This document shows, in pieces, positions 11,545 to 49,346 of a DNA stretch of 64,000 nucleotides. The notes beneath the pieces were generated by a model that was not told where the DNA came from, searched no databases, and worked only from the letters and a program-made list of their open reading frames with translations. How positions within the stretch are numbered: position 1 is the stretch's first letter; every line of letters starts with the position of its first letter. The stretch is from a virus (Duplodnaviria; Heunggongvirae; Uroviricota; Caudoviricetes), in the IMG/VR virus record IMGVR_UViG_3300032286_000505, positions 1 through 64,000 of that record; one strand, 5' to 3'. The position numbers and the translations under genes were made by a program.

Positions 11545-11545
11545 G

Positions 11546-15738: not shown

Positions 15739-15739
15739 T

Positions 15740-15961: not shown

Positions 15962-16149
15962 AAAAAGATACAAATACAGATACTGCAATTGCAGAATTCC
16001 TGGCCAGAGGCGGAGTTATTCAACAGGCAGCATACCGAGAAAGCGGTAGAGTAGAAGGTGCTCCCCCGTCGCCTTGGGGTGCTAAAAAAGCCGGCCGTAC
16101 TCCAAAAGCGGACTTGCCGCCCGAAGATTTGCACGAGGACGAAGAATGA
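15958..16149 (+). CDS. hypothetical protein (63 aa), acidic C-terminus
   Basis: Overlapping stop-start with its neighbours. Confidence 0.3.
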   Translation: MKKDTNTDTAIAEFLARGGVIQQAAYRESGRVEGAPPSPWGAKKAGRTPKADLPPEDLHEDEE

Positions 16150-16652: not shown

Positions 16653-16659
16653 GAATAGT

Positions 16660-16688
16660 TTGACACAGGAATAGGCCTGTGTTATACT
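16660..16688 (+). promoter_or_regulatory. sigma70 promoter TTGACA-17-TATACT with a 7-bp inverted repeat in the spacer
   Basis: ACACAGG...CCTGTGT hairpin or operator lies between the hexamers. Confidence 0.55.
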
Positions 16689-16741
16689 GTAAACAAGTCC
16701 AAGCGATAGACGCCTGGCATTTTAAATAAAGGAACTTTATT

Positions 16742-18139
16742 ATGAAACTCGCAAAAAACATCATCCTGAACACCGACTCATATAAAGTGAGTATGGATCG
16801 CCAATATCCAGTAGGTACTACCGGTGTATATTCATATATTGAGAGCCGCGGAGGCCGATACGATCAAACAGTATTCTTCGGACTACAGGCTTTTATCAAA
16901 GAGTACCTGCTGGAACCAATCACTCAAGCAGACATCGACATTGCTGAAGAAATCCTTACCGCTCACGGTGAGCCTTTCAACCGATCAGGATGGCAGTACA
17001 TTCTTGACAAACACATGGGATACCTCCCAGTTGTCATCAAATCTGTCCCCGAAGGCACAGTCGTCCCTGTTAAAAATGTACTTGCAACCATTGAAAACAC
17101 AGACCCCGAGTGCTTCTGGCTCACAACATGGCTAGAAACAGCCTTGCTTCGTGCAGTGTGGTACGGTACTACTGTGGCAACACAAAGCTGGACAATTAAA
17201 CAAGTCATTCTTGACTATCTGGAGAAAACTGGTGATCCTAGCACTATCGATTTTAAGTTGCATGACTTTGGCGCTCGGGGCGTATCTAGCCTTGAATCTG
17301 CTGCCATTGGGGGCGCGGCCCACTTGGTCAACTTTATGGGGACCGATACTATCAGTGGTATCCTACACGCTCGTGAGTTTTATAACGCTGGTATTGCTGG
17401 CTTCTCAATTCCTGCTGCCGAACACAGCACCATTACAAGCTGGGGACGAGATGGAGAAGTCGATGCCTACCGCAACATGCTCGATCAGTTCGCCAAGCCC
17501 GGAAGCATTGTTGCTGTCGTGTCTGATTCCTATGACATCTTCAACGCCGCCCGAACCCTCTGGGGAGAAGAACTTCGGCAACAAGTTATTGACAGCGGTG
17601 CAACTGTAGTCATTCGTCCAGATAGTGGAGATCCACTTACTATCAACCAACAGTTGATTGAGATCCTTGGAGAGAAATTTGGTTACACCAAAAACGCCAA
17701 AGGCTTCAAAGTACTTAACAATGTGCGTTTGATCCAAGGCGACGGTGTAAACGAATTGAGTATCCGTAGTATCCTCGGTGGGTTCATGGCCATGGGCTGG
17801 AGTGCTGATAACATTGCATTTGGTATGGGCGGCGCATTGCTCCAGCAATTGGATCGTGATACACTGAAGTTTGCAATGAAGTGTTCTAGTGCAGAAGTCA
17901 ACGGTCGTTGGATCGATGTACAAAAAGATCCGATTACTGACAGCGGCAAGAAGTCTAAAGCAGGTCGCGTAACATTGTGGCAAAGTGGACGCGAGTATTT
18001 TAGCTCTGTTGACAAGCCAAAGACCTGGACAGACTACGGCGTTGGTGACGCAACTGAAGTTCTTGAAGAAGTCTACCGTGACGGTAAGCTGATTAAAGAA
18101 ATCGACTTTGCTACTGTTCGAGCTAACGCTCGCAAATAA
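16742..18139 (+). CDS. nadV: nicotinamide phosphoribosyltransferase (NAMPT/NadV)
   Basis: 465 aa; VVIRPDSGDP and SDSYDIF motifs of the NAMPT/PncB-type phosphoribosyltransferase fold. Confidence 0.8.
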   Translation: MKLAKNIILNTDSYKVSMDRQYPVGTTGVYSYIESRGGRYDQTVFFGLQAFIKEYLLEPITQADIDIAEEILTAHGEPFNRSGWQYILDKHMGYLPVVIKSVPEGTVVPVKNVLATIENTDPECFWLTTWLETALLRAVWYGTTVATQSWTIKQVILDYLEKTGDPSTIDFKLHDFGARGVSSLESAAIGGAAHLVNFMGTDTISGILHAREFYNAGIAGFSIPAAEHSTITSWGRDGEVDAYRNMLDQFAKPGSIVAVVSDSYDIFNAARTLWGEELRQQVIDSGATVVIRPDSGDPLTINQQLIEILGEKFGYTKNAKGFKVLNNVRLIQGDGVNELSIRSILGGFMAMGWSADNIAFGMGGALLQQLDRDTLKFAMKCSSAEVNGRWIDVQKDPITDSGKKSKAGRVTLWQSGREYFSSVDKPKTWTDYGVGDATEVLEEVYRDGKLIKEIDFATVRANARK

Positions 18140-28393: not shown

Positions 28394-28804
28394 ATGGACG
28401 GAAGAATAACATTAATTACACCACCGGATATATTTGAAAATAGCAATACCAGTGTATTGTTTGTAAATCTCAGTGAGCCCGATCAAGACATTGTCAGTCG
28501 CTGGTTGTCAGCCAACACAATAACAGAAAACTTAAATTTTTATGTGTATTCGGGAGAGCCCAGCGTTCCTTGGTTTTTACACGCTTCGAGTCGTTGTGAG
28601 CATAAGTATATAGACTTAAATAATTCTAACTATGTTATAAATGCATTAAGCAGCTACATGTTGAGTAAGAGTGGAGTTTACTATAAAGTTGACGATGAAA
28701 ACATCTCTTCAATTTATAGTCATATCAATCCAAATAAAATAACACGTATTGAAACATTTCTCGAAAGGTTGTTAATTGAACAAGGATACAAACCACAGTT
28801 GTGA
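28394..28804 (+). CDS. hypothetical protein (136 aa)
   Basis: ORF. Confidence 0.35.
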   Translation: MDGRITLITPPDIFENSNTSVLFVNLSEPDQDIVSRWLSANTITENLNFYVYSGEPSVPWFLHASSRCEHKYIDLNNSNYVINALSSYMLSKSGVYYKVDDENISSIYSHINPNKITRIETFLERLLIEQGYKPQL

Positions 28805-30005
28805 TTTCTGCGGCAAAAGTAAAGAAGACGTAGAAAAACTGATCGTAGGAGAAAACGCAGCCATTTGTAATGACTGTATTGATCTCTGTGTTGATATACT
28901 AAAAGACGAAAAGATCAAGACTCGGCCTTCTGATAAGAAAATTCTCAATCCTGCGTCTCTCAAAGACTACCTTGACGAATTTGTTATTGGACAGGACGAA
29001 GCTAAAATTGCTTTGAGTGTAGCAGTTAGTCAACACTTTAAAAGAATAAACAATCCTAGCAAAAATATCAAACTAGAGAAGACCAACGTACTGTTGCTTG
29101 GTCCTACTGGCTGTGGCAAGACCATGTTGGCTCGTAAAATTGCCGAATACCTAGATCTACCATTTGCTATCTGTGATGCTACTGGTATTACAGAAGCAGG
29201 ATATGTAGGCGACGATGTAGAAAGTATCTTAACTCGCTTGATCAATGAAGCTGACGGCGACATTGAAAAGGCAGGGCGAGGTATTGTCTACATTGACGAG
29301 ATTGACAAAATTGCCCGCAAAGGCGAAAGTGCCAGTCTTACTCGAGATGTTAGCGGAGAAGGTGTACAGCAGGCTCTACTTAAGATGGTAGAAGGCAGTA
29401 TTATGCGTATTCCTAGTACAGGCAAGCGTAAGCATCCTGGTAGCGATATGCAGGAAATTGATACTAGCGGTATTCTTTTTATCTGCGGTGGCGCCTTTGT
29501 TGGTTTAGATAAAATCATACAGCATCGATTAGAAGCTCGAAGTATTGGATTTAGTGCTAAGATAGCTGACAAAGAAGACAATAGTAAAAGCTACAGCGAT
29601 GTGAGTACAAAGGATCTTGTCCAATTTGGATTCATTCCAGAATTTATTGGCCGATTTGGATTGATCACTAATGTAGAAGAGCTTACACAAGATCAACTAG
29701 TATCTGTACTAGTCGATACTAAAAATAGCACTGTGCAACAGTATCAATACATATTTGAATTAGATGGAATTGAGTTAGAATTTGAAAAATCAGCTCTCCG
29801 AGAGATTGCCAGAAAAGCTAAAGATCTTAAAACCAATGCCCGAGGACTTAAAAATATCATAGAAAAGATACTATTACCGTATCAGTTTGATGCTATGAAC
29901 CTTGTAGAGCGTGGTTTGATAAAGATACTGATAAGTAAAGATACGGTGAGCGGAAAGGCCGCTACTATGATATTTGATAAAAAAGCAAACAATGAGCAAA
30001 AATAA
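28776..30005 (+). CDS. clpX: ATP-dependent protease ATPase subunit ClpX
   Basis: N-terminal C4 zinc finger CDFCGKS...CNDC; Walker A LLGPTGCGKT; sensor and arginine-finger regions; TTG start at 28776 or a downstream start. Confidence 0.85.
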   Translation: MNKDTNHSCDFCGKSKEDVEKLIVGENAAICNDCIDLCVDILKDEKIKTRPSDKKILNPASLKDYLDEFVIGQDEAKIALSVAVSQHFKRINNPSKNIKLEKTNVLLLGPTGCGKTMLARKIAEYLDLPFAICDATGITEAGYVGDDVESILTRLINEADGDIEKAGRGIVYIDEIDKIARKGESASLTRDVSGEGVQQALLKMVEGSIMRIPSTGKRKHPGSDMQEIDTSGILFICGGAFVGLDKIIQHRLEARSIGFSAKIADKEDNSKSYSDVSTKDLVQFGFIPEFIGRFGLITNVEELTQDQLVSVLVDTKNSTVQQYQYIFELDGIELEFEKSALREIARKAKDLKTNARGLKNIIEKILLPYQFDAMNLVERGLIKILISKDTVSGKAATMIFDKKANNEQK

Positions 30006-30225
30006 AGTTTTAACAGGCTGCAAAGTTATTGTGGGAGATCTGCCTATAAATGTGGCTTTGAGAAAGTTTAAACAACGAGTAGACGACAACGGCGTGTTAG
30101 AAGTTATTAAAGAGCGTATGCACTTTGAAAAACCAACTACAGAACGCAAAAGAAAAGCAGGAGCCGCTAAAGCTCGTTGGCTTAAAAAATTGCGCGAGCA
30201 AGAGCTACCTAAAAAAATGTATTGA
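29992..30225 (+). CDS. rpsU: 30S ribosomal protein bS21
   Basis: KVIVGDLPINVALRKFKQ...FEKPTTERKRKAGAAKARWLKKL aligns with bacterial S21 (VALRRFKR...YEKPTTERKR). Confidence 0.7.
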   Translation: MSKNKVLTGCKVIVGDLPINVALRKFKQRVDDNGVLEVIKERMHFEKPTTERKRKAGAAKARWLKKLREQELPKKMY

Positions 30226-30367: not shown

Positions 30368-31027
30368 ATGGCTAATTCAGCTCAACTCTCTAAAAACAAT
30401 AAAAATGCCCAAATATGGACCAATTGGGGTGATAACACAGAACGAGATTTTAAAACTTGTATCAAAGAAGTATTTGAACAATTGTCAACAATCTATCCAA
30501 ACTATGATTTTACACATCAAGGTAAAGTTAACAATCAAAAATTGATTGAGAGTTTTAACAATTACAACCCATCACATACATCTATCTTAAATGGTTCCAA
30601 CGGCGGTGGCTGCAATCCAGATGGTGGTGTAATTTACGTTAAAATTAATAATGGAAAATATATGCCTGTATTCATTGGTGAAAATAAACACCAAGAAGAT
30701 AATCCAGGAAATGCTATTGAACGATCTTTAAAAAATATATCGTTTTTTAAAAATCTTCTTATTAATGAAGATTACTTTCCATATCTTCTTAACATAAATG
30801 GTCCTATTGTAAATGATAGAAAAGGTAGTCTGTTTGATAGGATTGCACAGGACGGAGGATTTATGCCGATAAATACTGTACATGTAAAAAATAATCCAAA
30901 TACTCCACGACTCCGACCCTTTACTATTATACTTGATAAAAACTTTGATTATGATAAAGTCAAAAAAGTAAGTTTTGAAATTATAAAAGAATCAATTGAT
31001 CATTTAAAAAATGTTAATAAACTTTAA
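30368..31027 (+). CDS. EcoRI/RsrI-family type II restriction endonuclease
   Basis: NPDGGVIYVK...IGENKHQ...GNAIERSLKNISFF...YFPYLLNINGP parallels the EcoRI core (PDGGIVEVK...AEAKHQ...AAGNAIERSHKNISEI...HFPYVLFLEG) including the PD...E-x-K catalytic triad. Confidence 0.75.
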   Translation: MANSAQLSKNNKNAQIWTNWGDNTERDFKTCIKEVFEQLSTIYPNYDFTHQGKVNNQKLIESFNNYNPSHTSILNGSNGGGCNPDGGVIYVKINNGKYMPVFIGENKHQEDNPGNAIERSLKNISFFKNLLINEDYFPYLLNINGPIVNDRKGSLFDRIAQDGGFMPINTVHVKNNPNTPRLRPFTIILDKNFDYDKVKKVSFEIIKESIDHLKNVNKL

Positions 31028-32105
31028 GACTCCTTATCTAACTGAAAACATTATTACCTATATAGGTAATAAGCGAAAACTACTAATTGAAATTAGTGAT
31101 GTAGTTGATGACATTGTAAAGGATAATGAATCCTTTACAACTTGTCTCGATGCATTTAGTGGTAGCGGTATTGTCAGTCGATTGCTACGCCTTAAAGGAT
31201 TTACTGTATATGCCAACGATCTAGAAGATTATACACTTCCGATCAATCGAGCATTTTTAACACTTTCATCCGATCCGTTAACAACAGTAGATTATGAATT
31301 CTTAAATTCTGTTAATACAACTAACGCTCCTTATTTTAGTAAACACTATGCTCCTAAGAATACGGCAAATCCAGATTTAATAAATGAACGATTGTTCTAT
31401 TCAGCTGAGAATGCAGTGTTTATAGACGGAGTGTTAGAACACATACAGCAGTGGCCACAAAATAAAAAAGACGCCGTGCTGGCAAATCTTCTTTATAAAA
31501 TGAGTAAGAACATCAACACCAGTGGTGTGATGAAAGGATTTTATAATGGATTTGGCGGACCGAAAGGTCAAAACTTAGGAAGAATATTAGGAAAAATACA
31601 AATAGATCCTATCTATTATGTAGATAAACCGATTGGTGGAGTTTTTCAATCAAAGGCTGAAGAACTTTATTCCACTACAAGATGTCCGGCTGTTGACATA
31701 GCATACCTCGATCCTCCATATAACGGACATCAATACAGTTCAAATTATCATTTATTAAACAGTGCTGTAAAATATGATTTTTATGATCCAGGACTTACTA
31801 CCGCTAAGAAATCAAAAGTTGGTATTAGGAAAGATCATAACAGAAGTGTGTTTTGTTATAAGGATCAAGCAAAAGACGGATTTAAATCTGTAATCGATAC
31901 ACTACAGGCAAAATATCTTATTATTAGTTATAATAACGAAGGTATACTATCCATCAAAGAAATTGAAGATCTTTTGAAAACAAAATCCTCAAACATTAAA
32001 ATCCTATCAAAAAATTATAAAAAGTTTGCTGGTGGTTATGGCGGATATGAAAATACCTTAAACAAAAAAGTTCAAGAATTTTTTATTGTTGCAAAAATGA
32101 AATAA
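31011..32105 (+). CDS. N6-adenine DNA methyltransferase (Dam/D12-like alpha class)
   Basis: YIGNKRKLL, FSGSG (F-x-G-x-G) and LDPPY motifs in alpha-class order. Confidence 0.75.
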   Translation: MLINFKTPYLTENIITYIGNKRKLLIEISDVVDDIVKDNESFTTCLDAFSGSGIVSRLLRLKGFTVYANDLEDYTLPINRAFLTLSSDPLTTVDYEFLNSVNTTNAPYFSKHYAPKNTANPDLINERLFYSAENAVFIDGVLEHIQQWPQNKKDAVLANLLYKMSKNINTSGVMKGFYNGFGGPKGQNLGRILGKIQIDPIYYVDKPIGGVFQSKAEELYSTTRCPAVDIAYLDPPYNGHQYSSNYHLLNSAVKYDFYDPGLTTAKKSKVGIRKDHNRSVFCYKDQAKDGFKSVIDTLQAKYLIISYNNEGILSIKEIEDLLKTKSSNIKILSKNYKKFAGGYGGYENTLNKKVQEFFIVAKMK

Positions 32106-36007: not shown

Positions 36008-36226
36008 ATGATCTTGTTAAAGATAAAAGATCAACGCAAGGTAGAACATTATTGTGTAAAAAATATAGGGCGCAGGCTGTACTACCTGCATAATAAAATA
36101 GGCGGACAAGGATGGTCAATTAAAAAACAGAGTACAGAATTATTATTGACTATAGACGATGATAAAAAAGCGCTAATGGCTGTATTGATTTTGAGCGACG
36201 AAATATATGAAGCCCAGAGAAGGTGA
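36008..36226 (+). CDS. hypothetical protein (72 aa)
   Basis: ORF. Confidence 0.3.
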   Translation: MILLKIKDQRKVEHYCVKNIGRRLYYLHNKIGGQGWSIKKQSTELLLTIDDDKKALMAVLILSDEIYEAQRR

Positions 36227-36509
36227 AGATTATGCAGCATGGTTAGATCGTGCTAAAATGTACGAACACGGAATTGCCATGCAACGTATTGCCAAGGGCG
36301 AAGATTCAATCAAAGTTATGGAAGAGATGAGCAGGCGTTTGATAGAAAAAGCACTACACCCGATTTTTAAAGCTATTAAAGAAAGCTCAACGCAACCTTT
36401 TGATGCAGAGAAAAGCAGGCAAGAATACGAAGAAAAGTACTTAAAAAACAGCAAACCTGTAGCAGATCACGTGGATGGCAACTTATTTGACAATACTGAT
36501 AAAAGATAG
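36207..36509 (+). CDS. hypothetical protein (100 aa)
   Basis: ORF. Confidence 0.3.
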   Translation: MKPREGEDYAAWLDRAKMYEHGIAMQRIAKGEDSIKVMEEMSRRLIEKALHPIFKAIKESSTQPFDAEKSRQEYEEKYLKNSKPVADHVDGNLFDNTDKR

Positions 36510-36597
36510 TATAAATATATGTGTAGCAGATACTTTATAGGTCAGTTACACGGGCACAGTGCCCAAAAAATGATTCTTACTTATTAAGGAGAAAATT

Positions 36598-37032
36598 ATG
36601 AATCAACTAGTACGCTTCGACACCAACGCTTTAAACAAAGCCCTTTTAGGATTTGACCAACTGTTCGATAACTTCGAACATCGTTTTGCAAATCAAATCC
36701 AGCAAAACTACCCCCCATATAATGTCTTGAAACACAATGACGATTCTTACGAATTGGAAATTGCTGTTACTGGATTTACTCCGGAGGAAATTACAGTTGA
36801 GATCGATCAGACTCAACTAATTGTTAAAGGACAGCGATTGCGTGACGAAGACACAAACACACAGTATCTACACCGCAGTCTTGCCACTCGCGACTTTACA
36901 CGATCATGGACTCTTGCAGAGCACATGGAAGTAGGCGAAGGCAAGATTAAAAACGGCGTTCTTACTATTGCTCTAACACGAGTGATTCCAGAAGCGCTTA
37001 AACCGCGTCAACTGAAAATTACTGCCGAGTAA
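36598..37032 (+). CDS. small heat-shock protein, Hsp20/IbpA family
   Basis: Alpha-crystallin domain; YPPYNV, AVTGFTPEEITVE, LTIALTRVIPEALKPR closely parallel E. coli IbpA; RBS AAGGAGAAAATTATG. Confidence 0.85.
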   Translation: MNQLVRFDTNALNKALLGFDQLFDNFEHRFANQIQQNYPPYNVLKHNDDSYELEIAVTGFTPEEITVEIDQTQLIVKGQRLRDEDTNTQYLHRSLATRDFTRSWTLAEHMEVGEGKIKNGVLTIALTRVIPEALKPRQLKITAE

Positions 37033-37035
37033 TCC

Positions 37036-37062
37036 CCGGGGGCGTAAATGCCCCCATTTTTT
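37036..37062 (+). terminator. Rho-independent terminator GGGGGCGTAAATGCCCCC then ATTTTTTAA
   Basis: GC stem with T-tract after the Hsp20 gene. Confidence 0.65.
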
Positions 37063-37081
37063 AACTCTTATTAAATAAAAA

Positions 37082-37390
37082 ATGAGCACCGAAACACCAG
37101 TTATCGAAAAGAAAAAACAAACAAGTAGGCAAATTAAAGAACCAGGTAAGTTCAAAGTTGTTGTTTGTAATGATGATGTAACCACAGCAGATTTTGTTGT
37201 AGCCATGCTAATGAACATTTTCCGCTACGACGAGAAGCGGGCATATGAATTAACTATTTTAATTCATCAAAGGGGTAGTGCAGTAGCAGGTGTTTATTCA
37301 TACGAGATTGCTGAACAAAAAGCAGTCGATGCAACCAATATGGCTCGTATCAACGGATTCCCTTTGATAACTAAAGTGGAACCAGAATGA
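37082..37390 (+). CDS. clpS: ATP-dependent Clp protease adaptor ClpS
   Basis: FKVVVCNDDVTTADFVVAMLMNIF matches the ClpS core ([24 protein letters not shown]). Confidence 0.85.
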   Translation: MSTETPVIEKKKQTSRQIKEPGKFKVVVCNDDVTTADFVVAMLMNIFRYDEKRAYELTILIHQRGSAVAGVYSYEIAEQKAVDATNMARINGFPLITKVEPE

Positions 37391-37397
37391 GGATACT

Positions 37398-37934
37398 GTG
37401 AGCCTAAAAGACCTAACAGCAGAAAAACATAAACTAGCAGAATCAACTCCCTTTATGAAAGCGGTGTTTGCTCAAACTTTGCCGCGTGATATTTGGGTTG
37501 ATTGGACTTATCAGAAATGGTTGTTCTACGGTGCCATCGAAGGTGCCGCAGGTGCTAATCGTTTACTAGAAGACTTGCCAGATTTGCGTAGAGCATTTTA
37601 TTTGGCAATGGACTATGCAGAAATGAACGGCAGTAATCCACTACATGAGTTCCGCCCCGTTGTTGTAGACTACTACAACTACCTGCTATCCATTAGCAAA
37701 GACCCCGAGAAGATTATGGCGCACTTGTACACATGGCACATGGGCGACATGTTCGGTGGGCAAATGATTAAGAAGATTGTTTCAGGACCACATCGTAATT
37801 TAGAATTTGAAGACCCCCGCACACTAATGACCAACATTCGTGCTAAACTAGACGACAGCATGGGCGACGAAGCCAATGTGGCCTTTGACTGGGCAATACG
37901 CATGATGAGAGATTATGACAGTAGTTTGGGATAA
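37398..37934 (+). CDS. heme oxygenase
   Basis: YTWHMGDMFGGQMIKKIV parallels cyanobacterial HO1 YTRYLGDLSGGQILKKIA; N-terminal LKDLTAEKHKLAE helix. Confidence 0.7.
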   Translation: MSLKDLTAEKHKLAESTPFMKAVFAQTLPRDIWVDWTYQKWLFYGAIEGAAGANRLLEDLPDLRRAFYLAMDYAEMNGSNPLHEFRPVVVDYYNYLLSISKDPEKIMAHLYTWHMGDMFGGQMIKKIVSGPHRNLEFEDPRTLMTNIRAKLDDSMGDEANVAFDWAIRMMRDYDSSLG

Positions 37935-38586
37935 GATTAGTAAATTAGCCGCCGATATTACAGAACGATTTAATGCTAATGGTGAACAGACAACTACACC
38001 GTCTGAACATCAATACAATTGGCATAATACCCTGTGGACTAGCAATCGATTTCGCAGGGCACATGTTGAAATTGTAGATTTCCGAGAATCCCACAATATC
38101 TACATATTACACTGTACGGTATTTCCGCACTACAACGATCCGAGTCCTATCTACGGGTTTGATGCAGTATGCGGTCCCAACAAAATAACAGGTGCCTTCC
38201 ACGATTTTAGCCATGCTGGTGACCCCCATAGTTTTATGTATCTGTGGTTCAAAGCCCAAGTACACGGTCTAGAGTGGAACAAGCCCAGAGCGCTTCCTGA
38301 ATGGGCTCAGCAGATCTTTAGTCCGGCCATGGTAGCTGCTGGTAACCTACAGGACGAAGCAGAAATAGATCAATTGTGCAGTACAGCACTGACTACGCTA
38401 GATTTCTATTTAAAGAATGTAGGGTTAGATCAACAAGATACTGCGGATTTTCATATAGCACAGAACCGTTATTGCCATTGGCAAAAGCAGAATCCGCATG
38501 TAGTTAAGAGCATGATTAGCATGGGTGTGCCTGAATCTACTATGAAGAAGTTTGTTAGCGAAGTGTTGTTTCCTGAAGTTAGATAA
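37915..38586 (+). CDS. ferredoxin-dependent bilin reductase (PcyA/PcyX/PebS family)
   Basis: RAHVEIVDFRESHNIYILHCTVFPHYNDPSPIYGFDAVCGPNKITGAFHDFS and C-terminal QNRYCHWQKQ...VLFPEV align with the PcyA core and C-terminus. Confidence 0.7.
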   Translation: MTVVWDKISKLAADITERFNANGEQTTTPSEHQYNWHNTLWTSNRFRRAHVEIVDFRESHNIYILHCTVFPHYNDPSPIYGFDAVCGPNKITGAFHDFSHAGDPHSFMYLWFKAQVHGLEWNKPRALPEWAQQIFSPAMVAAGNLQDEAEIDQLCSTALTTLDFYLKNVGLDQQDTADFHIAQNRYCHWQKQNPHVVKSMISMGVPESTMKKFVSEVLFPEVR

Positions 38587-38596
38587 ATATTAGATT

Positions 38597-40399
38597 ATGA
38601 GATCACGTGAATTTTTAAAAGAAGCAACCCTTCAAAGCTCGTCCACTTCTAGCTGGCCCACTTATCTAGCAAATCTTATTACTGCAAAAGATATCGGAGT
38701 TGGTCCACAGGGTGAAAAACGTAGCGGACAACAATTAGACGATAAATCTAAAAAAATAGTAAAAGATCTAATAACACTGCTTAAAAACAACATTAATACA
38801 GGAGAACTAACTTCTCGAGAAATAAAAGCATCAATAGAAAATACTGTTGTTACATTAATTCCAGATGAAGTATCTGTTCCAATAAAATTTATTTACAAAA
38901 ATGCAGAAATTAAAGGCGGAAAATCAGAGGCAGGCTCTGAAAAGAAACCTTGGAATGAAGGTGAAGTTACCGAAACAATCCTCGGCGCTGCCTTATACGC
39001 TAGATTTATCAGTAATAAAAATATCTCAGGCGGCGAAGTTTTAAATGCTCTCAAAGAGTTTGTACAGAATCCTACACCAAATGGATTTGAAATTACAGAT
39101 GCTGTGAGAAACAAAACAAGTCCTATTCAAATGAAGGCATTAAATAAACCTGGAAACAATGAAGTTATCAACGAATACATAACTAATAAAAAAGATCTAG
39201 CTCTTAAATTTCCAGAAGGCGTAGCAGCTCTAGATCGTAAAGTAGAAGCCTGTGCTGCCTATGTAAATGAATCATCTAAAGTAAAAAAAGCATTGGAAGA
39301 AGCAGATGCCGTTCCTGGTAATACAATTATTATTAAAACTGACGGTGTAACTGAGCAAAAAGGAACTAAGGCTGACTTAGAAATTAGTGTTGGGAAATAT
39401 AAACAGCTACTAAGTTTAAAAGTAAACGATGTCAAGCAATTTGGTCAAGACAGCGGTTCAAGTGGTGTTATAGTATCTACGTTTTTTAAACGTTTTATTC
39501 CAGATTTAGACATATCAAATCTATACATGAATGGAGATATACCTAAGTCCTGGACTCCAGAAACAGGTGAGGGCTGGCCCAATATGGGTAGCAAGGCATC
39601 GACAAATGCGCTCAAACGTGACGGACTATGGGAATCAGCAGTTGATCAAGTATACAAGTTAACTGGCATGGCCTATCAACAGGCACACGATTTGTTACAA
39701 CGGCAACTGTCAACTCCGGTCGGAGCAGAGCAAGTTATTTCAAATATTTACAACGGCATACTACATCACGCACAAGGCAGTAATGCTGACCAATCTTTGG
39801 TTATATTAAATCCAGATACTAAGACAGCTTGGAAAGAATTAGAATTTGGACCTCCACTACTTCAAGCGTTAAAAAATTATCGCTTGGAAGTCTCGGTTCA
39901 AATAGCACCACCTGGAACTGATAGCAATCACCGACTTAAAGTCTTCGGTAGACCACTGACTCCAATAGCTGGCGCGGCAGCGGCCATTGATATTAGCAGT
40001 CCAGAAAAAGCCAAGAAAGTCAAGAAAGATCTAGATTCTAATAAACCTGTAAGAGAAAAAATGGATCCGGAGATGTTATTCCAATTAAGATCCTATATAC
40101 AAGAATCTGGTAATATGCGTAATCCAGTAGAAATGGGACCATTGCTAAAGAGTCTTACCGAAGTACAGGCAATTAATGCAGCGCCTGAGGTTGCGCCTGC
40201 GGCCGTTCCGGACGAATTAGACAGAATTAAAAATCTAGCAGGTGTTCCTGCAACTCCTCCAAAACCTGGACCAAATACAACTACTATGCAGGGAACTACT
40301 ATGCAGACCCCTACAACAGCTGGTATAACCAATCAAAATCGTACACTGGGTAACAAGATTCCTATGGGATCTGCGCCGTTGCCTACAATGCCACAATAA
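38597..40399 (+). CDS. hypothetical protein (600 aa), Pro/Ala/Thr-rich C-terminus
   Basis: Large ORF; no motif recognised. Confidence 0.4.
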   Translation: MRSREFLKEATLQSSSTSSWPTYLANLITAKDIGVGPQGEKRSGQQLDDKSKKIVKDLITLLKNNINTGELTSREIKASIENTVVTLIPDEVSVPIKFIYKNAEIKGGKSEAGSEKKPWNEGEVTETILGAALYARFISNKNISGGEVLNALKEFVQNPTPNGFEITDAVRNKTSPIQMKALNKPGNNEVINEYITNKKDLALKFPEGVAALDRKVEACAAYVNESSKVKKALEEADAVPGNTIIIKTDGVTEQKGTKADLEISVGKYKQLLSLKVNDVKQFGQDSGSSGVIVSTFFKRFIPDLDISNLYMNGDIPKSWTPETGEGWPNMGSKASTNALKRDGLWESAVDQVYKLTGMAYQQAHDLLQRQLSTPVGAEQVISNIYNGILHHAQGSNADQSLVILNPDTKTAWKELEFGPPLLQALKNYRLEVSVQIAPPGTDSNHRLKVFGRPLTPIAGAAAAIDISSPEKAKKVKKDLDSNKPVREKMDPEMLFQLRSYIQESGNMRNPVEMGPLLKSLTEVQAINAAPEVAPAAVPDELDRIKNLAGVPATPPKPGPNTTTMQGTTMQTPTTAGITNQNRTLGNKIPMGSAPLPTMPQ

Positions 40400-40463
40400 T
40401 TCAGTTTTCTTTTCTAAGACTTAAATAAGTCTACAGAGTTAAATACTCTTATATAGGAAAGAT

Positions 40464-40835
40464 ATGGAAATACTGTTCTTACTGCTATTATTCCAAATCA
40501 AGCACTGGTACGCTGATTTTAAGATTCAAACCTACATGCAGACTGTAAAGAAGGGCGTGTGGTTAGATCCAATTGGCATGAGCCATACATGGGACCACGT
40601 TAAGTTTACTATTGTAGTCCTAGCAATCTTTTGGTTTATTCATCCAATAAGTTTATGGTCGGCACTATTAGTCATATTGCTAGAGGGCCCGTATCACTAT
40701 ATAATTGATTATACCAAAGTTAGATACGGTTGTAAAGATAATACCAAACCGTTATTCTGGAATCAGTTTGGCTTAGACCAATTAGCTCATCAAATATCTT
40801 ATCTTGCCATTGCGTGGTATCTATTAGTTTTTTAA
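40464..40835 (+). CDS. integral membrane protein (4 TM, 123 aa)
   Basis: Hydrophobic helices. Confidence 0.4.
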   Translation: MEILFLLLLFQIKHWYADFKIQTYMQTVKKGVWLDPIGMSHTWDHVKFTIVVLAIFWFIHPISLWSALLVILLEGPYHYIIDYTKVRYGCKDNTKPLFWNQFGLDQLAHQISYLAIAWYLLVF

Positions 40836-40903
40836 TCTAGACTAAAGTACTACGATAATTTGTAGTAATTACTCCTTAAATATTATTAATAAGGGAGCAG
40901 TCT

Positions 40904-41389
40904 ATGAAAAAGATCGTAGTAGCATTAGGGGTATGGCTCGCACTAGCTGTAAATTCCGCAAATGCAGAGCTAGTTCAACAGTTTAAAAATCCAGCTTTTA
41001 GCGGTATTGGATACAGCAGTCATGTATTGACTATTGACAGTATCGAAAAATCACGCAAAGATGCAATTGAAGCTGATAAAAAAGCAACCATTGCTAGAGC
41101 AGAAGCTGAACTGCTAAACACACCTTTGAATAGATTCATGGGCCTATTTCAAAGCCAAGTTTATGCTCAACTTGCAACACAATTAAGCAATAACCTATTC
41201 ACAAATAAATGCGCTAATGCAGACGGCACTGCAATTCCGGGCTGTGTAAATCCAACAACAGGTAACTTTAATCTAGACGGTAATACAGTTACCTGGGCCA
41301 AAGCCAATGACAAAGTTACACTGACAGTTGTAGATGCCAAAGGCACTGTAACTCGAGTTATTGTTCCAATTGCTAGTTTCAGTTTTTAA
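40904..41389 (+). CDS. csgF: curli assembly protein CsgF-like
   Basis: Signal peptide followed by ELVQQFKNPAFSG, matching the CsgF N-terminus TMTFQFRNPNFGG; RBS AAGGGAG. Confidence 0.65.
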   Translation: MKKIVVALGVWLALAVNSANAELVQQFKNPAFSGIGYSSHVLTIDSIEKSRKDAIEADKKATIARAEAELLNTPLNRFMGLFQSQVYAQLATQLSNNLFTNKCANADGTAIPGCVNPTTGNFNLDGNTVTWAKANDKVTLTVVDAKGTVTRVIVPIASFSF

Positions 41390-41399
41390 GGAGTAAACA

Positions 41400-42248
41400 A
41401 TGAAAGCAATTAAATTATCCTTAATCACACTAGCCGCAGTGACTCTAGTAGGTTGCTCAACTGTACGCCCATTTGGCAGTACACAAATCAAAGAAGAAGC
41501 TCGAGTCAGTGAAACTATCAATAAAAGTTTTGTTGATGTTCCAAGTCCAGCAGGCCCAGCAGTCACTGTGGCAGTCTATGGCTTCAAAGACCTAACAGGA
41601 CAGCGTAAACCAAGTTCAACATTGAGCTTGTTTAGTACAGCAGTTACACAAGGTGCTGAAGCATACTTGATGAAAAGTTTACAAGAAGTTGGCAATCGTC
41701 AATGGTTCACAGTAGTTGAACGTGTTGGCCTTGACAACCTATTGAAAGAGCGTCAGATGATCAAACAGACACGTGAGATCTACGAAGGCGCAAATGCCAA
41801 ACCTTTACCTCCACTACAAATGGCGGGCGTTATTTTAGAAGGCGGCATTATTGACTACAACAGTAACACCTTAACAGGCGGAACTGGAGCACGTTGGTTA
41901 GGTATTGGAACACAAACAGCTTACACTCAGGACGTGGTTGTTATTAGTCTGCGTCTAGTAAGCGTACAAACTGGCGAAGTCTTAACTACGGTAACAGTGG
42001 AAAAGAATTTGCTCAGTACCGCCGATGGTGCAACAGCGTTGAAGTTTTTCAACCAGGCAACACAGGCGTTCGAATTTGATACGAGTCAAACATTCAATGA
42101 GCCGGGCAACTATGCCCTACGTTCAGCAATTGAGACAGCGGTTATCGAATTGATTAAAAAAGGTGAGCGTCAAAACCTGTGGAAATTCAAAGAGCAAACA
42201 ACTGAGTTGGTTCAAGACAATACCTCACTTGAAGAAAGCAAAAAATAA
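41400..42248 (+). CDS. csgG: curli secretion channel lipoprotein CsgG
   Basis: Lipobox LVGCS; VAVYGFKDLTGQRKP, FSTAVTQGAEAYLMKSLQ, WFTVVERVGLDNLLKERQ, VILEGGIIDYNSNTLTGGTGARWLGIG, LRLVSVQTGEVL align along the length of E. coli CsgG. Confidence 0.85.
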   Translation: MKAIKLSLITLAAVTLVGCSTVRPFGSTQIKEEARVSETINKSFVDVPSPAGPAVTVAVYGFKDLTGQRKPSSTLSLFSTAVTQGAEAYLMKSLQEVGNRQWFTVVERVGLDNLLKERQMIKQTREIYEGANAKPLPPLQMAGVILEGGIIDYNSNTLTGGTGARWLGIGTQTAYTQDVVVISLRLVSVQTGEVLTTVTVEKNLLSTADGATALKFFNQATQAFEFDTSQTFNEPGNYALRSAIETAVIELIKKGERQNLWKFKEQTTELVQDNTSLEESKK

Positions 42249-42284
42249 AGTAAAACAGGTTGAACAGACCAGGAGCAAACAAAA

Positions 42285-43079
42285 ATGAAAAAAACACTAT
42301 TAACAATTTTATTAGCCGCAACACTACCGGCTTTTGCACAGACAGCAGTATCTGCACCATCAGCACCTATTATTCCATCAATGACTACAGTTAGTCCTAA
42401 TGCAACAGCCGCATTGGCCATTGCTACTACTAACCGTGTCTTCATTGATCAAAGTGGTGCAAACCCTAATGTCAACATGACACAAGATGGTACAGGCAAC
42501 AAGGCAGGTTCAGCTGCTCGACCAGTATACCTACGTGGCATTGACCAAGTTATTGTTACCAGACAAGTTGGTATCAACAATGAAATCAATCTAGAAGTAT
42601 CAAACGATACTACTGGAACAGGTAAAGGTGCAAAGGTCACTATTCAACAATTAGGTGACAGTAACACGGTTGACGCGGCCTGCGGATACGGTTTTGCCAG
42701 TAACGGCACAACGGCACTAACAGGATGTAACAATGCTGATCTAAACTGGAAATTCAATACCGGCAGTGATAGCAATGTATTACAGTTCCGTGGATCGGGA
42801 ACAGATCTAAAGAGTGCAATTGATGTTACAGGTGATACTAACAAGTTCTATGTAGATACTATTGGTAATAAACACAGCCAGACTATCAAAGTAGTAGGTA
42901 ACACTAACGAGTTCAATATTAACCAACAATCGACTGGTGCAGCAGGATCTAGCATTTGGGTTGATGTTAATGGTGATGGCAACAAGTTTGCTATGAGCCA
43001 AACTGGAACTATTGATAACGTTATTAATATCAAAAGTGTAGCCACAAGCGGCACATTTAACATCACTCAGAAGAACTAA
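42285..43079 (+). CDS. secreted curlin-repeat protein (CsgA/CsgB-like)
   Basis: Signal peptide; repeated x-I/V-x-Q-x-G-x-x-N-x-x-x-V units (IDQSGANPNVNM, IQQLGDSNTV, INQQSTG, MSQTGTIDNV). Confidence 0.5.
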   Translation: MKKTLLTILLAATLPAFAQTAVSAPSAPIIPSMTTVSPNATAALAIATTNRVFIDQSGANPNVNMTQDGTGNKAGSAARPVYLRGIDQVIVTRQVGINNEINLEVSNDTTGTGKGAKVTIQQLGDSNTVDAACGYGFASNGTTALTGCNNADLNWKFNTGSDSNVLQFRGSGTDLKSAIDVTGDTNKFYVDTIGNKHSQTIKVVGNTNEFNINQQSTGAAGSSIWVDVNGDGNKFAMSQTGTIDNVINIKSVATSGTFNITQKN

Positions 43080-43088
43080 GGAGCGGCA

Positions 43089-44267
43089 ATGAGAGTTGCC
43101 TCTCTTATCATTGGCTTATTGGTAGCCAGTTCAGCTTGGGCGGAAATTGGTTCCGTTACAGAAGCCTCTGGAACTGCTATCATTAAGCGTGGTAAAGAAA
43201 CTATTCAAGTTTCTAAAGGAACTCTTATTGAAACCAACGACCGAGTTGAGACCAAAAACGGTAAGATTAAAATTGTTTTTAAAGACGATACTAATGTTAC
43301 CGTTACTGAGTCTAGTAGCTTAATCATAGATGACTTTGTTTATGATCCCAAAAGCGGTGCTGGAAAGCTAGGACTTAAAGCAGCCGCAGGTACGATACGC
43401 TATGTATCTGGCAACATTGCTAAAGATCCTAAGAATGTAAAAATCAATACGCCTACAGCAGCCATTGCTGTTCGTGGTACTGATTTTGTTATGGCAGTCA
43501 GTGAAACTGGCGCTAGTATGGTCATGCTGATGCCCACCTGTGAAATAGAACAAAATGTAAACTTAAAAGGTCTTAGCTGTGGCAGTGGTGCTATCGATGT
43601 AGAAACACCAGCAGGCATTGTTAAACTAAATCGCCCTTATCAAGCTACCCTAGTTGAAACACTAAACGGCATGCCCAGTCCTGCTGTAGTTGTTGCTCTT
43701 AATGGCATGGCTATTGGCAATAACTTAATAGTTAGTCCTCCACAAACAACTACCGGTATAAATGTTATTGCTGCTGCCCGTGCTGCCGCAGTAGCTACAG
43801 GTGATGCAAAGAAAGACGATAAAAAAGATAAGCGTGACGATAAAGAAGATAAAGATGACGCCAAAGAAGAACGTCAACATGCTGCCAATAAAGATAACGG
43901 TGGAGCAAATAAGTCACAGAAGCAAGGACGCGGATCTAACGACAACAGTGAAGAAGAGAAAACTAGAACTGCTGCCAATAGCATCGATCCTCCTACAAAT
44001 AAAGAAGTTGCATCTAGTGAATCTACAGCAATAGGTGATATTGAAAATCCCTACGTTAAGAAGTTATGGAAAGACAAAAGCGAAACGCAACAAGTTGGAT
44101 GGATGTATGAAAGTTTAAGTCCAAACAATCGTAACTATGCAAATATCGTTATGCCTTTAGACACTAAAGTTCAGGTTACTGTAACACAAGATATGCAAAC
44201 CAATCAATGGAACTTTGCTCCAGGCAAACCTATAGGACAGATTGTTATCAATCAGAACTTCAGATGA
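43089..44267 (+). CDS. secreted FecR-domain protein with charged low-complexity linker
   Basis: Signal peptide; IIKRGKETIQVSKGTLIETNDRVETKNGKIKIVFKDDTNVTV resembles a FecR/DUF4974-type beta sandwich. Confidence 0.45.
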   Translation: MRVASLIIGLLVASSAWAEIGSVTEASGTAIIKRGKETIQVSKGTLIETNDRVETKNGKIKIVFKDDTNVTVTESSSLIIDDFVYDPKSGAGKLGLKAAAGTIRYVSGNIAKDPKNVKINTPTAAIAVRGTDFVMAVSETGASMVMLMPTCEIEQNVNLKGLSCGSGAIDVETPAGIVKLNRPYQATLVETLNGMPSPAVVVALNGMAIGNNLIVSPPQTTTGINVIAAARAAAVATGDAKKDDKKDKRDDKEDKDDAKEERQHAANKDNGGANKSQKQGRGSNDNSEEEKTRTAANSIDPPTNKEVASSESTAIGDIENPYVKKLWKDKSETQQVGWMYESLSPNNRNYANIVMPLDTKVQVTVTQDMQTNQWNFAPGKPIGQIVINQNFR

Positions 44268-47279: not shown

Positions 47280-49346
47280 ATGTTTAAAAAGCTCTTACTT
47301 AATCCTTGGACTGCATTGTTCACCCTCGCACTAGTTCTACTAGTTAGATTCATTGATCCCTCATTTGTAGAATCAGTTCGACTTAGGTATTTTGATCAAT
47401 TAATTACCAGTCAACCCACAAATACTGCTCCCGTACACACAGTCAATATAGATGAAGCTACCTTAGACAAATATGGGCAATTCCCATTCCCTAGAGGAAC
47501 TTATGCAAACATTATTAAAGACCTTTATGATAGAAATGCTGGACTTGTTGTGTTCAATATCCTTATGCCTGAGCAAGATAGGTTTGGTCAAGATAATCAA
47601 TTGGCCCGAGTGTTAGAGAAATATCCTACTATACTCCCGGAGTTGGGAAGCATATCAGGAAAGAACAAAACATTTGGTTCTGCTGTACAGGTAATTGGTC
47701 AAGATCCTGGCGGTGCACTAGTCGACTATCTAGGCATTATTGCCAACGTCCCTGTTTTAGAAGAACGTGCAGCCGGCGTGGGCATTGTAAATACCTTTCC
47801 TGAGATCGACGGTGTTGTTCGTCGTATGCCGTTGCTTATTATGAGTAACAATACTGTGCATCCTAGTATAGCATTAGAGACGCTACGCATTGCCGCAGGT
47901 GATACAAAGATACAGGTTAAAATAACAGACATGGGCGTAGAAGCTCTACGTGTTCCAAAGTTGAGTAAAATTACTGTAGATTCGTTAAGCCGAGTTTGGA
48001 TTGATTGGGCACAAACTCCTAAAGAACATAGCTTGGCTGATTTGCCAAAAGACTTTAACGGTGAAATTGTTATAGTAGGATTAAGTGCAGCAGGGCTGGT
48101 TCAACCAGTTGCTACTGCCCGTGGCGAGGTGTGGCCGCAATATTTGCAGGCCAGTTTGCTAGGCACAATGCTTAACGGCAAGACTATTCAACGTCCGAGC
48201 TATGCAGATGATTTAGAAATTGTTGCCATCTTACTAGCAGGCGTTGCTTTACTGTTATTAACAAGGTGGACTTATGTTGGACTTGCCGCAGTGGTTGTAT
48301 TGGTTGGTGGTGGTGTCGCTGGCAGCATCTATGCTTACAGCAATTTTTTATGGTTATTCGATACTACTGCCTTTGCAGTTGGCACAACTTTGGTCGCTTT
48401 GCATGCCTATGGCGTCAAGTTTGTAAGTGAGTTCTTACAGAAGTCAGCAATCAAAAAACAGTTTGGAAGTTATGTGAATCCTGTTATTGTGGAGCGCCTA
48501 CAAAAAGATCCTAGTTTTATCAAATTGGGCGGTGAGAAAAAAGACCTTACAGTTATCATGAGTGACATGCGTAACTTTACAGGACTAGGTGAAACCTATG
48601 GTGACGACGTTGTAGCATTTACACAAACCATGAACCGTTACATGACTGCCATTGCGGAGCCTATCCTACGCAACAACGGTTGTTTGATCAAATTCATTGG
48701 TGATGCGTCATTACACGTACACGGTGCTCCTATTCAAGAAGAACAAGATCCTGACCACGTGTTGGCCGCTGTTCGTACTGGTTTAGAAATGTTACACGCC
48801 GTTGAACTGTTTAACATTGAACTTACCAAAGAAGGCAAACCTTTGGTAGGTTGCGGACTAGGTATCAACACAGGTCCTACACTAATTGGTAACATTGGTA
48901 GCAAAGACCGTTTTGGTTATGACGTACTAGGTGACAGTGTAAGTCTTACTGCTCGACTAGAAGGACAGACCAAGAATTACGGTGTGTTGATTATCATCAG
49001 TGAATTTACACAGGCTAGAGTAGGGGACAACTATTTTACAATCGAACTTGATAACATTGCTGTTAAAGGTAAGAGCATTGGAGTTACTATCTACACAGTG
49101 TTCTACAATCCAGATATCACAGTGGCAGCAGATTGGATCATGGCTCGTGATATGCACAATGGTATGTTGACTTATTATCGTCAGCAAAAATGGGATCTTG
49201 CCATTGAACTATGTCAAGAACTTACAGGAGAGTTTGATGGTAAGATGGATGATTACTATACGCTATGGCAAGAACGTATTGCTGAAATGCGCTCTAGAGA
49301 TCTTCCTGCAGATTGGGATGGTACTTACAGGGCTACGTCAAAGTGA
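47280..49346 (+). CDS. CHASE2 sensor domain, TM helices, class III adenylate/guanylate cyclase
   Basis: N-terminal TM then periplasmic CHASE2-like domain; three TM helices; cyclase core KDLTVIMSDMRNFTGL...FIGDASL...LGDSVSLTARLEG. Confidence 0.75.
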   Translation: MFKKLLLNPWTALFTLALVLLVRFIDPSFVESVRLRYFDQLITSQPTNTAPVHTVNIDEATLDKYGQFPFPRGTYANIIKDLYDRNAGLVVFNILMPEQDRFGQDNQLARVLEKYPTILPELGSISGKNKTFGSAVQVIGQDPGGALVDYLGIIANVPVLEERAAGVGIVNTFPEIDGVVRRMPLLIMSNNTVHPSIALETLRIAAGDTKIQVKITDMGVEALRVPKLSKITVDSLSRVWIDWAQTPKEHSLADLPKDFNGEIVIVGLSAAGLVQPVATARGEVWPQYLQASLLGTMLNGKTIQRPSYADDLEIVAILLAGVALLLLTRWTYVGLAAVVVLVGGGVAGSIYAYSNFLWLFDTTAFAVGTTLVALHAYGVKFVSEFLQKSAIKKQFGSYVNPVIVERLQKDPSFIKLGGEKKDLTVIMSDMRNFTGLGETYGDDVVAFTQTMNRYMTAIAEPILRNNGCLIKFIGDASLHVHGAPIQEEQDPDHVLAAVRTGLEMLHAVELFNIELTKEGKPLVGCGLGINTGPTLIGNIGSKDRFGYDVLGDSVSLTARLEGQTKNYGVLIIISEFTQARVGDNYFTIELDNIAVKGKSIGVTIYTVFYNPDITVAADWIMARDMHNGMLTYYRQQKWDLAIELCQELTGEFDGKMDDYYTLWQERIAEMRSRDLPADWDGTYRATSK

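Follow-up and report, generated by a model that had tools for sequence, protein, structure and literature searches.

Bacteriophages of non-photosynthetic hosts that carry genes for a heme oxygenase (HO) and a ferredoxin-dependent bilin reductase (FDBR) pose an acknowledged puzzle concerning the purpose of the bilin. One such pair raises the further question of whether the gene standing directly before it, which encodes a ClpS-type N-degron adaptor, belongs to the same pathway. The pair lies on the IMG/VR virus record IMGVR_UViG_3300032286_000505, part of a genome of roughly 300+ kb, of which a 64-kb stretch (positions 1 to 64,000 of the record) was analyzed; this stretch is called the window below, and coordinates are positions in it. 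A sequence-only reading of the window had described ClpS, HO and FDBR (positions 37082-38586) as one run next to a gene for a small heat-shock protein, Hsp20. The run probably consists of two parts: an Hsp20-hairpin-ClpS backbone found throughout the phage lineage and a two-gene heme-catabolic cassette that occupies the cargo position behind it. The locus leaves the puzzle of the bilin itself unsolved.

The interval contains three plus-strand open reading frames (ORFs), almost unspaced, that sit exactly where the sequence-only reading had placed them, and their identities are borne out by Pfam profiles, judged here and below against the curated gathering scores (GA). ClpS matches PF02617 (2.1e-25, 88.8 bits vs GA 23), HO matches PF01126 (7e-16, 59.1 bits vs GA 23), and FDBR matches PF05996 (3.1e-20, 73.2 bits vs GA 31). 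The features to which the text refers are as follows (aa, amino acids):

36207 to 36509, plus strand: homologue of the dimerization domain of glutamyl-tRNA reductase (GluTR), PF00745, stand-alone, 100 aa, an accessory gene of the freshwater clade
36598 to 37032, plus strand: small heat-shock protein Hsp20 of the alpha-crystallin family, PF00011, IbpA/IbpB-like, a backbone gene
37038 to 37055, plus strand: terminator-like hairpin between Hsp20 and ClpS, with a GC-rich stem of 7 pairs (6 G-C) and a T-run behind it
37082 to 37390, plus strand: ClpS-type N-degron adaptor, PF02617, 102 aa, a backbone gene paired with Hsp20
37398 to 37934, plus strand: short HemO-type heme oxygenase, PF01126, 178 aa, GTG start
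37915 to 38586, plus strand: ferredoxin-dependent bilin reductase of the PcyA/PcyX lineage, PF05996, 223 aa
38597 to 40399, plus strand: 600-aa protein with no assigned function and zero Pfam matches, which closes the cargo slot
28776 to 30005, plus strand: ClpX unfoldase, 409 aa, NCBIfam equivalog

The HO start codon lies 7 nt past the ClpS stop and is preceded by a Shine-Dalgarno sequence (GAGGA), the HO and FDBR genes overlap by 20 nt, and 10 nt separate the FDBR stop from the start of the 600-aa gene. When Hsp20, ClpS, HO and FDBR are compared with their relatives, nonsynonymous divergence (dN) is far below synonymous divergence (dS), with omega of about 0.05-0.23, rough values because dS is saturated; these are therefore maintained genes rather than chance ORFs.

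The cargo slot behind Hsp20 and ClpS

A nucleotide search of a phage collection with positions 36500-40500 gave zero matches, and relatives were therefore sought through proteins. More than 1100 FDBR homologues were found in metagenomes, on contigs of up to 374 kb, the 120 best being 75-90% identical to the window protein, and the local gene order is identical on contigs of 374 kb and 308 kb. Two samples of loci were assembled: an FDBR-seeded scan of viral contigs, supplemented by two look-ups of encoding contigs, and a separate ClpS-seeded scan, which yielded 76 loci, 69 of them distinct. In the FDBR-seeded scan and the look-ups, all 19 loci with an FDBR at least 66% identical to that of the window show the order Hsp20-ClpS-HO-FDBR. 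Nine more distant viral-contig loci and the Pelagibacter phage Mosig carry HO-FDBR without Hsp20-ClpS.

The ClpS-seeded scan separates the two parts of the run. Hsp20 stands directly upstream of ClpS in 67 of the 69 distinct loci. Among the 66 loci with enough downstream sequence, ClpS is followed by HO and then FDBR in 42, by FDBR only in two and by neither in 22. The latter carry other cargo after ClpS, with equally tight junctions. This cargo includes IMPDH/GMP-reductase genes (loci L060, L095 and others), fatty-acid desaturases in tandem (L051), and a pyridine-nucleotide reductase with a 2Fe-2S ferredoxin (L102, 3969-5290; L103, 5267-6588), possibly an electron-supply pair; the remainder are unknown genes. 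A marine sub-lineage has the order ClpX-IF3-S21-Hsp20-ClpS (L051, 2614-4426; L064, 2431-4350), and these phages thus cluster translation and proteostasis genes. The simplest reading, which we regard as probable, is that Hsp20-ClpS forms a backbone within a proteostasis and translation region and that HO-FDBR is the commonest occupant of the cargo slot behind it. A slot of this kind behind a conserved backbone argues against a role of ClpS in the pigment pathway. The idea of one run as a functional unit is thus not upheld: ClpS goes with Hsp20, and HO-FDBR is one of several cargoes. Hsp20 is known as a core gene beside accessory genes in large freshwater phages and in cyanophages; in the former it has likewise been reported to adjoin an accessory gene, pmoC, and was judged to be unrelated to pmoC function (Chen et al., 2020). 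The Hsp20-hairpin-ClpS backbone with its cargo slot was not found in the literature searched, and the slot offers a landmark for finding further accessory genes in these phages.

The Hsp20 protein matches PF00011 (6e-16) and PHROG family 432 (5e-38). Its designation in the sequence-only reading as an IbpA-like chaperone holds to the extent that IbpA and IbpB are its best NCBIfam models; both scores fall below the equivalog cut-offs (for IbpA, 108.9 bits vs 212). Right after the Hsp20 stop codon, the window has a hairpin followed by ATTTTTT. A GC-rich hairpin occupies the same place in most of about 67 related spacers, as judged by inspection with no formal covariation test, many of them lacking a clear T-run. 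The position is kept while the stems vary (GGGGGC/GCCCCC, GGGAGG/CCTCCC, GCGGCGC/GCGCCGC and others), and the element may serve to terminate or attenuate transcription or to set RNA stability. A motif preceding ClpS (ATTAAATA / TTAAATA) occurs at too few sites in the window to be judged as a general late-promoter-like motif.

The slot is closed by a gene of a different character. The 600-aa protein of the window has zero Pfam matches, and its 114 homologues likewise lack a Pfam domain; its AlphaFold2 model (predicted local distance difference test score, pLDDT, 83) has zero PDB matches with E<1. The genes found after the cargo encode mosaic, fast-evolving "MRxxEF..." proteins that fall into at least five clusters and have nothing in common but a module at the N-terminus (about 100 aa) or one at the C-terminus (about 25-35 aa) (window, 38597-40399; L001, 10680-12464; L004, 10682-12202; L060, 6496-7857; L095, 6078-7160). 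All inspected members start with MRxxEF (or QF, DF, EL), a start that we take to resemble the capsid-targeting sequence of T4 internal proteins (MKTYQEFIAE). Clustering and profile-profile comparison identified c2 and c6/c7, partly related, as the families common to HO-bearing and HO-less loci; they stand after HO-FDBR in some loci and after GMP-reductase-type cargo in others. A profile search did not find the window's own 600-aa family after ClpS in HO-less loci. An invariant D...TKADL...LSLK motif in the window copy and some weak restriction-enzyme-like matches suggest a nuclease-like core, possibly of the PD-(D/E)xK type. The protein was also considered as a bilin acceptor, a role rejected for now on account of the missing Pfam domain and PDB fold match and its mosaic, fast-evolving nature.

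Heme oxygenase and the lineage of the bilin reductase

The best solved relative of the window HO is Corynebacterium HmuO (1IW0; 5e-13), whereas an NCBIfam search gave zero matches. The proximal histidine, whose absence would have spoken against a heme oxygenase, is present: His11 aligns to the heme-ligand His20 of HmuO. In addition, the distal-helix motif G116-D117-x-x-G120-G121 aligns to G135-D136-x-x-G139-G140. His11, Tyr111, Asp117, Gly120 and Gly121 occur in every one of 50 unique phage HOs (173-197 aa), and Gly116 in 49 of them. The protein is as long as vHemO of the freshwater phage CB_2 (174 aa) and shares its C-terminal motifs. CB_2 vHemO turns heme into biliverdin IX-alpha in vitro (PMC11480375), and since this active enzyme likewise has only 174 aa, the short format is normal for such a cassette. 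The predicted reaction of the window HO is the conversion of heme into biliverdin IX-alpha, iron and CO. In the marine locus L091 (5264-5800), an HO-like gene beside an FDBR with Asp at the catalytic Glu position keeps the proximal His but has LDLNLAEM in place of the Gly motif of the distal helix; the gene may encode a heme oxygenase that has degenerated or been repurposed.

The FDBR also keeps the residues expected of an active enzyme. With PcyA numbering verified on the Synechocystis protein, to which the FDBR is about 26% identical, Glu52, His66 and Asp83 occupy the positions of PcyA Glu76, His88 and Asp105; the counterparts in PcyX are Asp55, His69 and Asp86. The His/Asp proton-donor pair, the loss of which would have told against the assignment, is therefore in place. 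In an alignment of 122 sequences, made up of PcyX, the window protein and its 120 closest listed homologues, His66 and Asp83 never vary, and Glu stands at position 52 in 120, including 119 of the 120 homologues. PebS or PebA chains were not found among the PDB matches at E<=1, and His66 is present, unlike in the Asn/Asp/Asp site of PebS-type enzymes. The sequence-only reading had proposed a reductase of the PcyA, PcyX or PebS type; the PcyA/PcyX lineage stands, PebS does not, and the active-site alignment gives a mixture of PcyA and PcyX states.

That the enzyme is simply a PcyX, which would make phycoerythrobilin (PEB) by way of 15,16-dihydrobiliverdin, is a plausible reading to which we give somewhat less than even credence. 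The closest solved relative is PcyX_EBK42635 (5OWG; phmmer 1.6e-46, 37% identity), against about 1e-11 to 2e-11 for cyanobacterial PcyA, and the score against the NCBIfam PcyA equivalog (81.7 bits) does not reach the cut-off of 206. Trees were built from the published sequences of the PMC11480375 supplement and the FDBRs of 60-odd loci. In them the window FDBR lies inside a phage clade (92-98% bootstrap) that is divided into a Glu-type clade with the window (96-99%) and an Asp-type clade (99%), and the latter comprises all Asp-type sequences, including PcyX and that of phage Mosig. The proven makers of phycocyanobilin (PCB), namely CB_2, Bradyrhizobium and cyanobacterial PcyA, branch outside the phage clade, and the published sequence GROS21-1_SAMEA9560623 branches next to the Glu-type clade. 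Moreover, at the positions corresponding to PcyA 147, 167 and 220, the window FDBR has Lys123, Asn144 and Pro194, which are the PcyX states, where proven PCB makers have Gln147, Pro167 and an acidic residue 220. Of the columns that separate proven PCB makers from the Asp-type enzymes, the window clade is thus PcyA-like at 76 only.

Yet position 76 is the very residue used to part the two enzymes. Published work describes Glu76 as the PcyA signature, without which the 18-vinyl group is not reduced, and gives Asp as its counterpart in PcyX (PMC13446030; PMC10151467); the residue is Glu in 120 of the 122 aligned sequences. Around the catalytic His, the window enzyme reads ILHC like cyanobacterial PcyA, where PcyX reads MAHL. 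A precedent also speaks against a PcyX label taken from similarity, in that the freshwater phage enzyme of CB_2, annotated as "pcyX-like" and lacking the PcyX Asp, was shown to produce phycocyanobilin and is a true PcyA (PMC11480375).

The window FDBR thus appears, from its alignments and its place in the trees, to belong to a mainly freshwater sister clade of PcyX and to fit neither PcyX nor PcyA cleanly. A Glu-type sister clade of PcyX was not found in the literature searched. Replacement of Asp55 by Glu reportedly failed to turn PcyX into PcyA, the variant still making no PCB, and Glu alone is therefore no predictor of the product. With a PcyA-type Glu on an otherwise PcyX-like scaffold, the sequence cannot call the product. 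We lean slightly and tentatively towards phycocyanobilin; phycoerythrobilin is a substantial possibility, and a product other than these two would be unlikely. The widespread Glu-type clade offers a natural test of whether Glu suffices for 18-vinyl reduction. Should the clade stand naturally midway between PcyA and PcyX, its product would reveal residues that set regiospecificity.

Taken together, HO and a PcyA/PcyX-lineage FDBR make up the heme-to-bilin route that the sequence-only reading had proposed, provided that the host supplies ferredoxin and reductant. During infection, HO would open host heme to biliverdin IX-alpha with release of Fe2+ and CO, and FDBR would then reduce biliverdin by four electrons, with host ferredoxin as the probable donor, to a phycobilin. 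Ferredoxin, phytochrome, GAF domain and globin were not found among the window ORFs. The phage might benefit from iron release, from heme removal or from a bilin signal.

ClpS, the GluTR-like protein and host tetrapyrrole metabolism

The window ClpS aligns to E. coli ClpS without gaps over 86 residues (7e-17) and, like it, has an N-terminal extension (about 22 residues), although it scores under the NCBIfam equivalog cut-offs. In E. coli numbering, it keeps N34, D35, D36, T38 and H66 and the ClpA-contact residues E79, E82 and K84. All of the 63 phage ClpS sequences compared have E79 and K84, 62 have E82, and 60 keep the pocket residues N34/D35/T38/H66. The gatekeeper Met40, which is Met in 48 of the 63, is Ala36 in the window protein, the sole Ala in the set; here Thr-Ala (residues 35-36) replaces Pro39-Met40 of E. 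coli. The M40A substitution relaxes and broadens the specificity of E. coli ClpS, and Thr-Ala at this site may widen the range of N-degrons recognized.

The sequence-only reading had taken the presence of ClpS together with ClpX as a sign of hijacked N-degron proteolysis. The co-occurrence is real, but the conserved ClpA-docking residues make host ClpA, not the phage ClpX, the expected partner of ClpS, and a ClpS-ClpX partnership is not implied. ClpX reaches its NCBIfam equivalog (525 bits vs a cut-off of 359) and has a zinc finger, Walker A, GYVG and RKH motifs and an IGF loop at residue 257, which should allow it to work with ClpP of the host. The gene is overlapped by that of ribosomal protein bS21 (28776-30222 together), and the ClpX-S21 pair lies about 7 kb upstream of Hsp20-ClpS. 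ClpP and ClpA were not found among window ORFs of at least 55 aa. As an intact N-degron adaptor, ClpS would be expected to dock on the N-domain of host ClpA and to redirect host ClpAP, and phage ClpX would use host ClpP. Searches of the literature for phage-encoded ClpS with N-degron, or for ClpS with heme oxygenase, returned nothing relevant.

Upstream of Hsp20, the 100-aa GluTR-like protein matches PF00745 narrowly (8.2e-05, 23.3 bits vs GA 22.9). The match is repeated independently in 10 of 10 orthologues from related loci (best 6.5e-07). In a large protein database, 57 clusters were found, spanning 55-106 aa overall, with 54 at 92-106 aa and three shorter; they lie on contigs of up to 393 kb, and most have a precomputed PF00745 match. 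The top PDB sequence match, 4YVQ (the dimerization domain of Arabidopsis GluTR1), is not significant (E 0.2-0.6). The AlphaFold2 model (pLDDT 81) has four helices, and a fold search gave only generic helical matches; the GluTR assignment therefore stays at the sequence level. The protein is best described as a putative domain homologue that lacks the catalytic and NADPH-binding domains, and not as a reductase, although JGI labels members "glutamyl-tRNA reductase" despite the missing catalytic domains. A phage GluTR dimerization domain was looked for in the literature, and nothing relevant was found. Together, the phage ClpS and the stand-alone GluTR domain suggest that the phage manipulates host proteolysis and possibly heme synthesis as well.

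It could be argued from these neighbors that the whole region is one module that seizes host tetrapyrrole metabolism, in which the GluTR-like protein would bind host GluTR (HemA) or a regulator that attaches to the GluTR dimerization domain, ClpS would alter ClpAP action or GluTR turnover, and HO-FDBR would drain heme into a bilin and free iron. In Salmonella, Lon and ClpAP degrade HemA, and in plastids GluTR is recognized by ClpS1. The GluTR-like protein is real at the sequence level and conserved, and many freshwater loci run GluTR-like-(GroES-GroEL)-Hsp20-ClpS-HO-FDBR, with GroES-GroEL present between the GluTR-like gene and Hsp20 in some of them. A profile search placed the GluTR-like gene in 21 loci; HO and FDBR are both present in 20 of these, and in the remaining one (L032) the sequence ends inside HO. 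The tight or overlapping ClpS-HO junctions with a hairpin upstream of ClpS also favor a module, as does the adjacency of ClpS, HO and FDBR even at an FDBR identity of 36-43%. In L001, moreover, an Aminotran_1_2 gene, a possible 5-aminolevulinic acid (ALA) synthase, lies 6 kb upstream, and phage ALA synthase-HO-FDBR cassettes have been published (PMC11480375).

Distribution speaks against this module. The constant neighbor of ClpS is Hsp20 and not HO, unrelated cargo with equally tight junctions follows ClpS in 22 of 66 loci, and HO-FDBR occurs without ClpS in pelagiphage-type contigs. The GluTR-like gene occurs only in freshwater Glu/Ser-type loci, always upstream of the chaperone/ClpS/HO/FDBR block. 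It is absent from all marine ClpS-HO-FDBR loci and from HO-less loci, and it is missing even in the close relatives L001, L007-9, L011 and L013. Because it is limited to one freshwater subclade, its co-occurrence with HO-FDBR is inseparable from shared ancestry, and its fold lacks structural confirmation. We therefore consider the module quite unlikely, and that the five genes (GluTR mimic, Hsp20, ClpS, HO and FDBR) form one unit seizing host tetrapyrrole flux is, in our view, a shade more doubtful still.

The preferred account, a lineage-wide backbone followed by a cassette in cargo position, has several points weighing against it. The ClpS-HO junctions measure -4 to +9 nt in most loci and the hairpin parts Hsp20 from ClpS; ClpS is therefore probably co-expressed with the cargo, which leaves room for a functional link. 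The Pfam match of HO spans only profile positions 6-141 of 204. The FDBR trees are neighbor-joining trees with bootstrap over 212-219 columns, and deep nodes within the phage clade are weak (15-45%). The activities of HO and FDBR are predicted by homology to tested relatives, which for this FDBR clade is a weakness, as is the reported outcome of the Asp55 exchange in PcyX. Finally, the window covers 64 kb of the genome, and ClpP, ClpA, ferredoxin or a bilin acceptor could lie elsewhere on it.

Genome, host and comparison with known systems

The window is a piece of a jumbo-phage-type genome, the host of which is probably an aquatic Gram-negative bacterium. Nearly all of its genes lie on the plus strand, its GC content is about 40%, its genes match PHROG families, and it encodes a ribonucleotide reductase and carries 23 tRNA genes plus a permuted two-piece tmRNA. 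The tmRNA gene (11502-11849) matches Rfam beta_tmRNA with 121 bits (gathering score 84) and specifies the tag peptide ANDEAFLMAA. The relatives are IMG/VR viral contigs of 200-390 kb, one of which bears T4 rIIB. Some of their contig names (KRAE22-1_SAMEA...) follow the style of a German-lake dataset (PMC11480375), a link that is one of naming style. The heterotrophic Gram-negative host proposed in the sequence-only reading is probable in view of the curli genes, the cyclase and the tmRNA match; the host is probably a freshwater organism and possibly a betaproteobacterium, an assignment drawn by inference. Two FDBR-bearing contigs (L107, L113) were binned in a Polynucleobacter metagenome-assembled genome (MAG), a weak pointer to a betaproteobacterial host.

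The binning of FDBR relatives into bacterial MAGs, these two contigs included, together with many cellular-looking genes (curli, ClpX, S21, NAD salvage), could suggest that the region is a bacterial chromosome or prophage remnant whose cassette serves a bacterial photoreceptor, but this is hardly credible given the one-strand layout, the 23 tRNAs, the tmRNA and the PHROG matches, the viral contigs of the relatives with T4 rIIB on one of them, the lack of a phytochrome, GAF domain or globin among the window ORFs, and the nature of the MAG matches, which are at most 48% identical, lie on contigs that mostly measure 3-30 kb, apart from two of 335-368 kb, and come from taxonomically scattered bins, as is typical of mis-binned phage DNA. 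Close FDBR relatives were not found in reference bacterial genomes, where MAG contigs gave the only matches. Distant FDBR relatives are also carried by L119 (OZ248446.1, a 367.9-kb "chromosome" of a Spirosomataceae assembly) and L114 (335 kb, Neomarinimicrobiota MAG), which may be jumbo-phage genomes wrongly assigned to bacteria.

The context genes named in the sequence-only reading, CsgF, CsgG, ClpX and a CHASE2-adenylate/guanylate cyclase, are real. A curli-like secretion block (40464-44267) comprises a DUF3307 membrane protein, CsgF, CsgG, a weak curlin-repeat protein and a FecR-domain protein, and the cyclase (47280-49346) lies downstream of it. CsgF-CsgG recurs past the cargo slot in many related loci; a literature search for a jumbo phage with CsgG found nothing relevant. 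Further upstream, positions 14719-18139 encode NAD salvage, with NAMPT and a cytidylyltransferase-like/Nudix fusion (NadR/NMNAT-like). At 30368-32105, a protein with an EcoRI-like restriction endonuclease domain (219 aa) adjoins a D12-class N6-adenine methyltransferase; possibly the two form a restriction-modification pair carried by the phage, inserted after ClpX-S21 and before the Hsp20 block.

HO-FDBR cassettes on phages of heterotrophs have already been published, PcyX in 2016 and 2018 and those of CB_2 and lake contigs in 2024 (PMC11480375). The literature thus agrees with the statement that such pairs are known from phages of non-photosynthetic hosts, and the locus is an ordinary phage accessory, a further case of the published cassette. 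The role of the bilin, which the sequence-only reading had called open, is still in question, but it has already been discussed in print for near relatives (PMC11480375). The nearest known systems are the vHemO-vPcyA/X cassettes of freshwater jumbo phages, the sources of which are the Grosse Fuchskuhle contigs GROS21-1 and phage CB_2 (Nat Commun 2024; PMC11480375), together with the work of Chen et al. (2020) on large freshwater phages. The contigs, of 318-374 kb and 38-41% GC, represent the same kind of genome as the window, and their cassettes likewise pair FDBR with an adjacent HO that is short (about 175-180 aa) and closely resembles the window HO in its motifs. Some of them include vAlaS, whereas an ALA synthase was not found in the window, and ClpS is not mentioned in PMC11480375 or its supplements. 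In addition, CB_2 vPcyA, the only tested freshwater enzyme, groups with Bradyrhizobium PcyA and has Glu at PcyA position 220, where the window has Pro.

The marine HemO-PcyX cassettes (PcyX_EBK42635, Mosig) share with the window the overlapping HO and FDBR genes, the His/Asp pair and Pro at PcyA position 220, but PcyX has Asp55 where the window has Glu52. Moreover, the Mosig cassette is found amid 2-oxoglutarate-Fe(II) oxygenase and ferrochelatase genes in a 141-kb T4-like genome, with neither ClpS nor Hsp20 beside it. PcyA of cyanobacteria, cyanophages and Bradyrhizobium ORS278 has the Glu76/His88/Asp105 triad in common with the window enzyme, which lacks the acidic residue 220. Compared with the E. 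coli ClpS-ClpAP pathway, the pocket and the ClpA contacts are kept, whereas the adaptor is phage-encoded and its window is devoid of ClpA and ClpP. With IbpA and IbpB, Hsp20 shares the alpha-crystallin domain; it scores under their equivalog cut-offs, and its gene is followed by the hairpin and ClpS.

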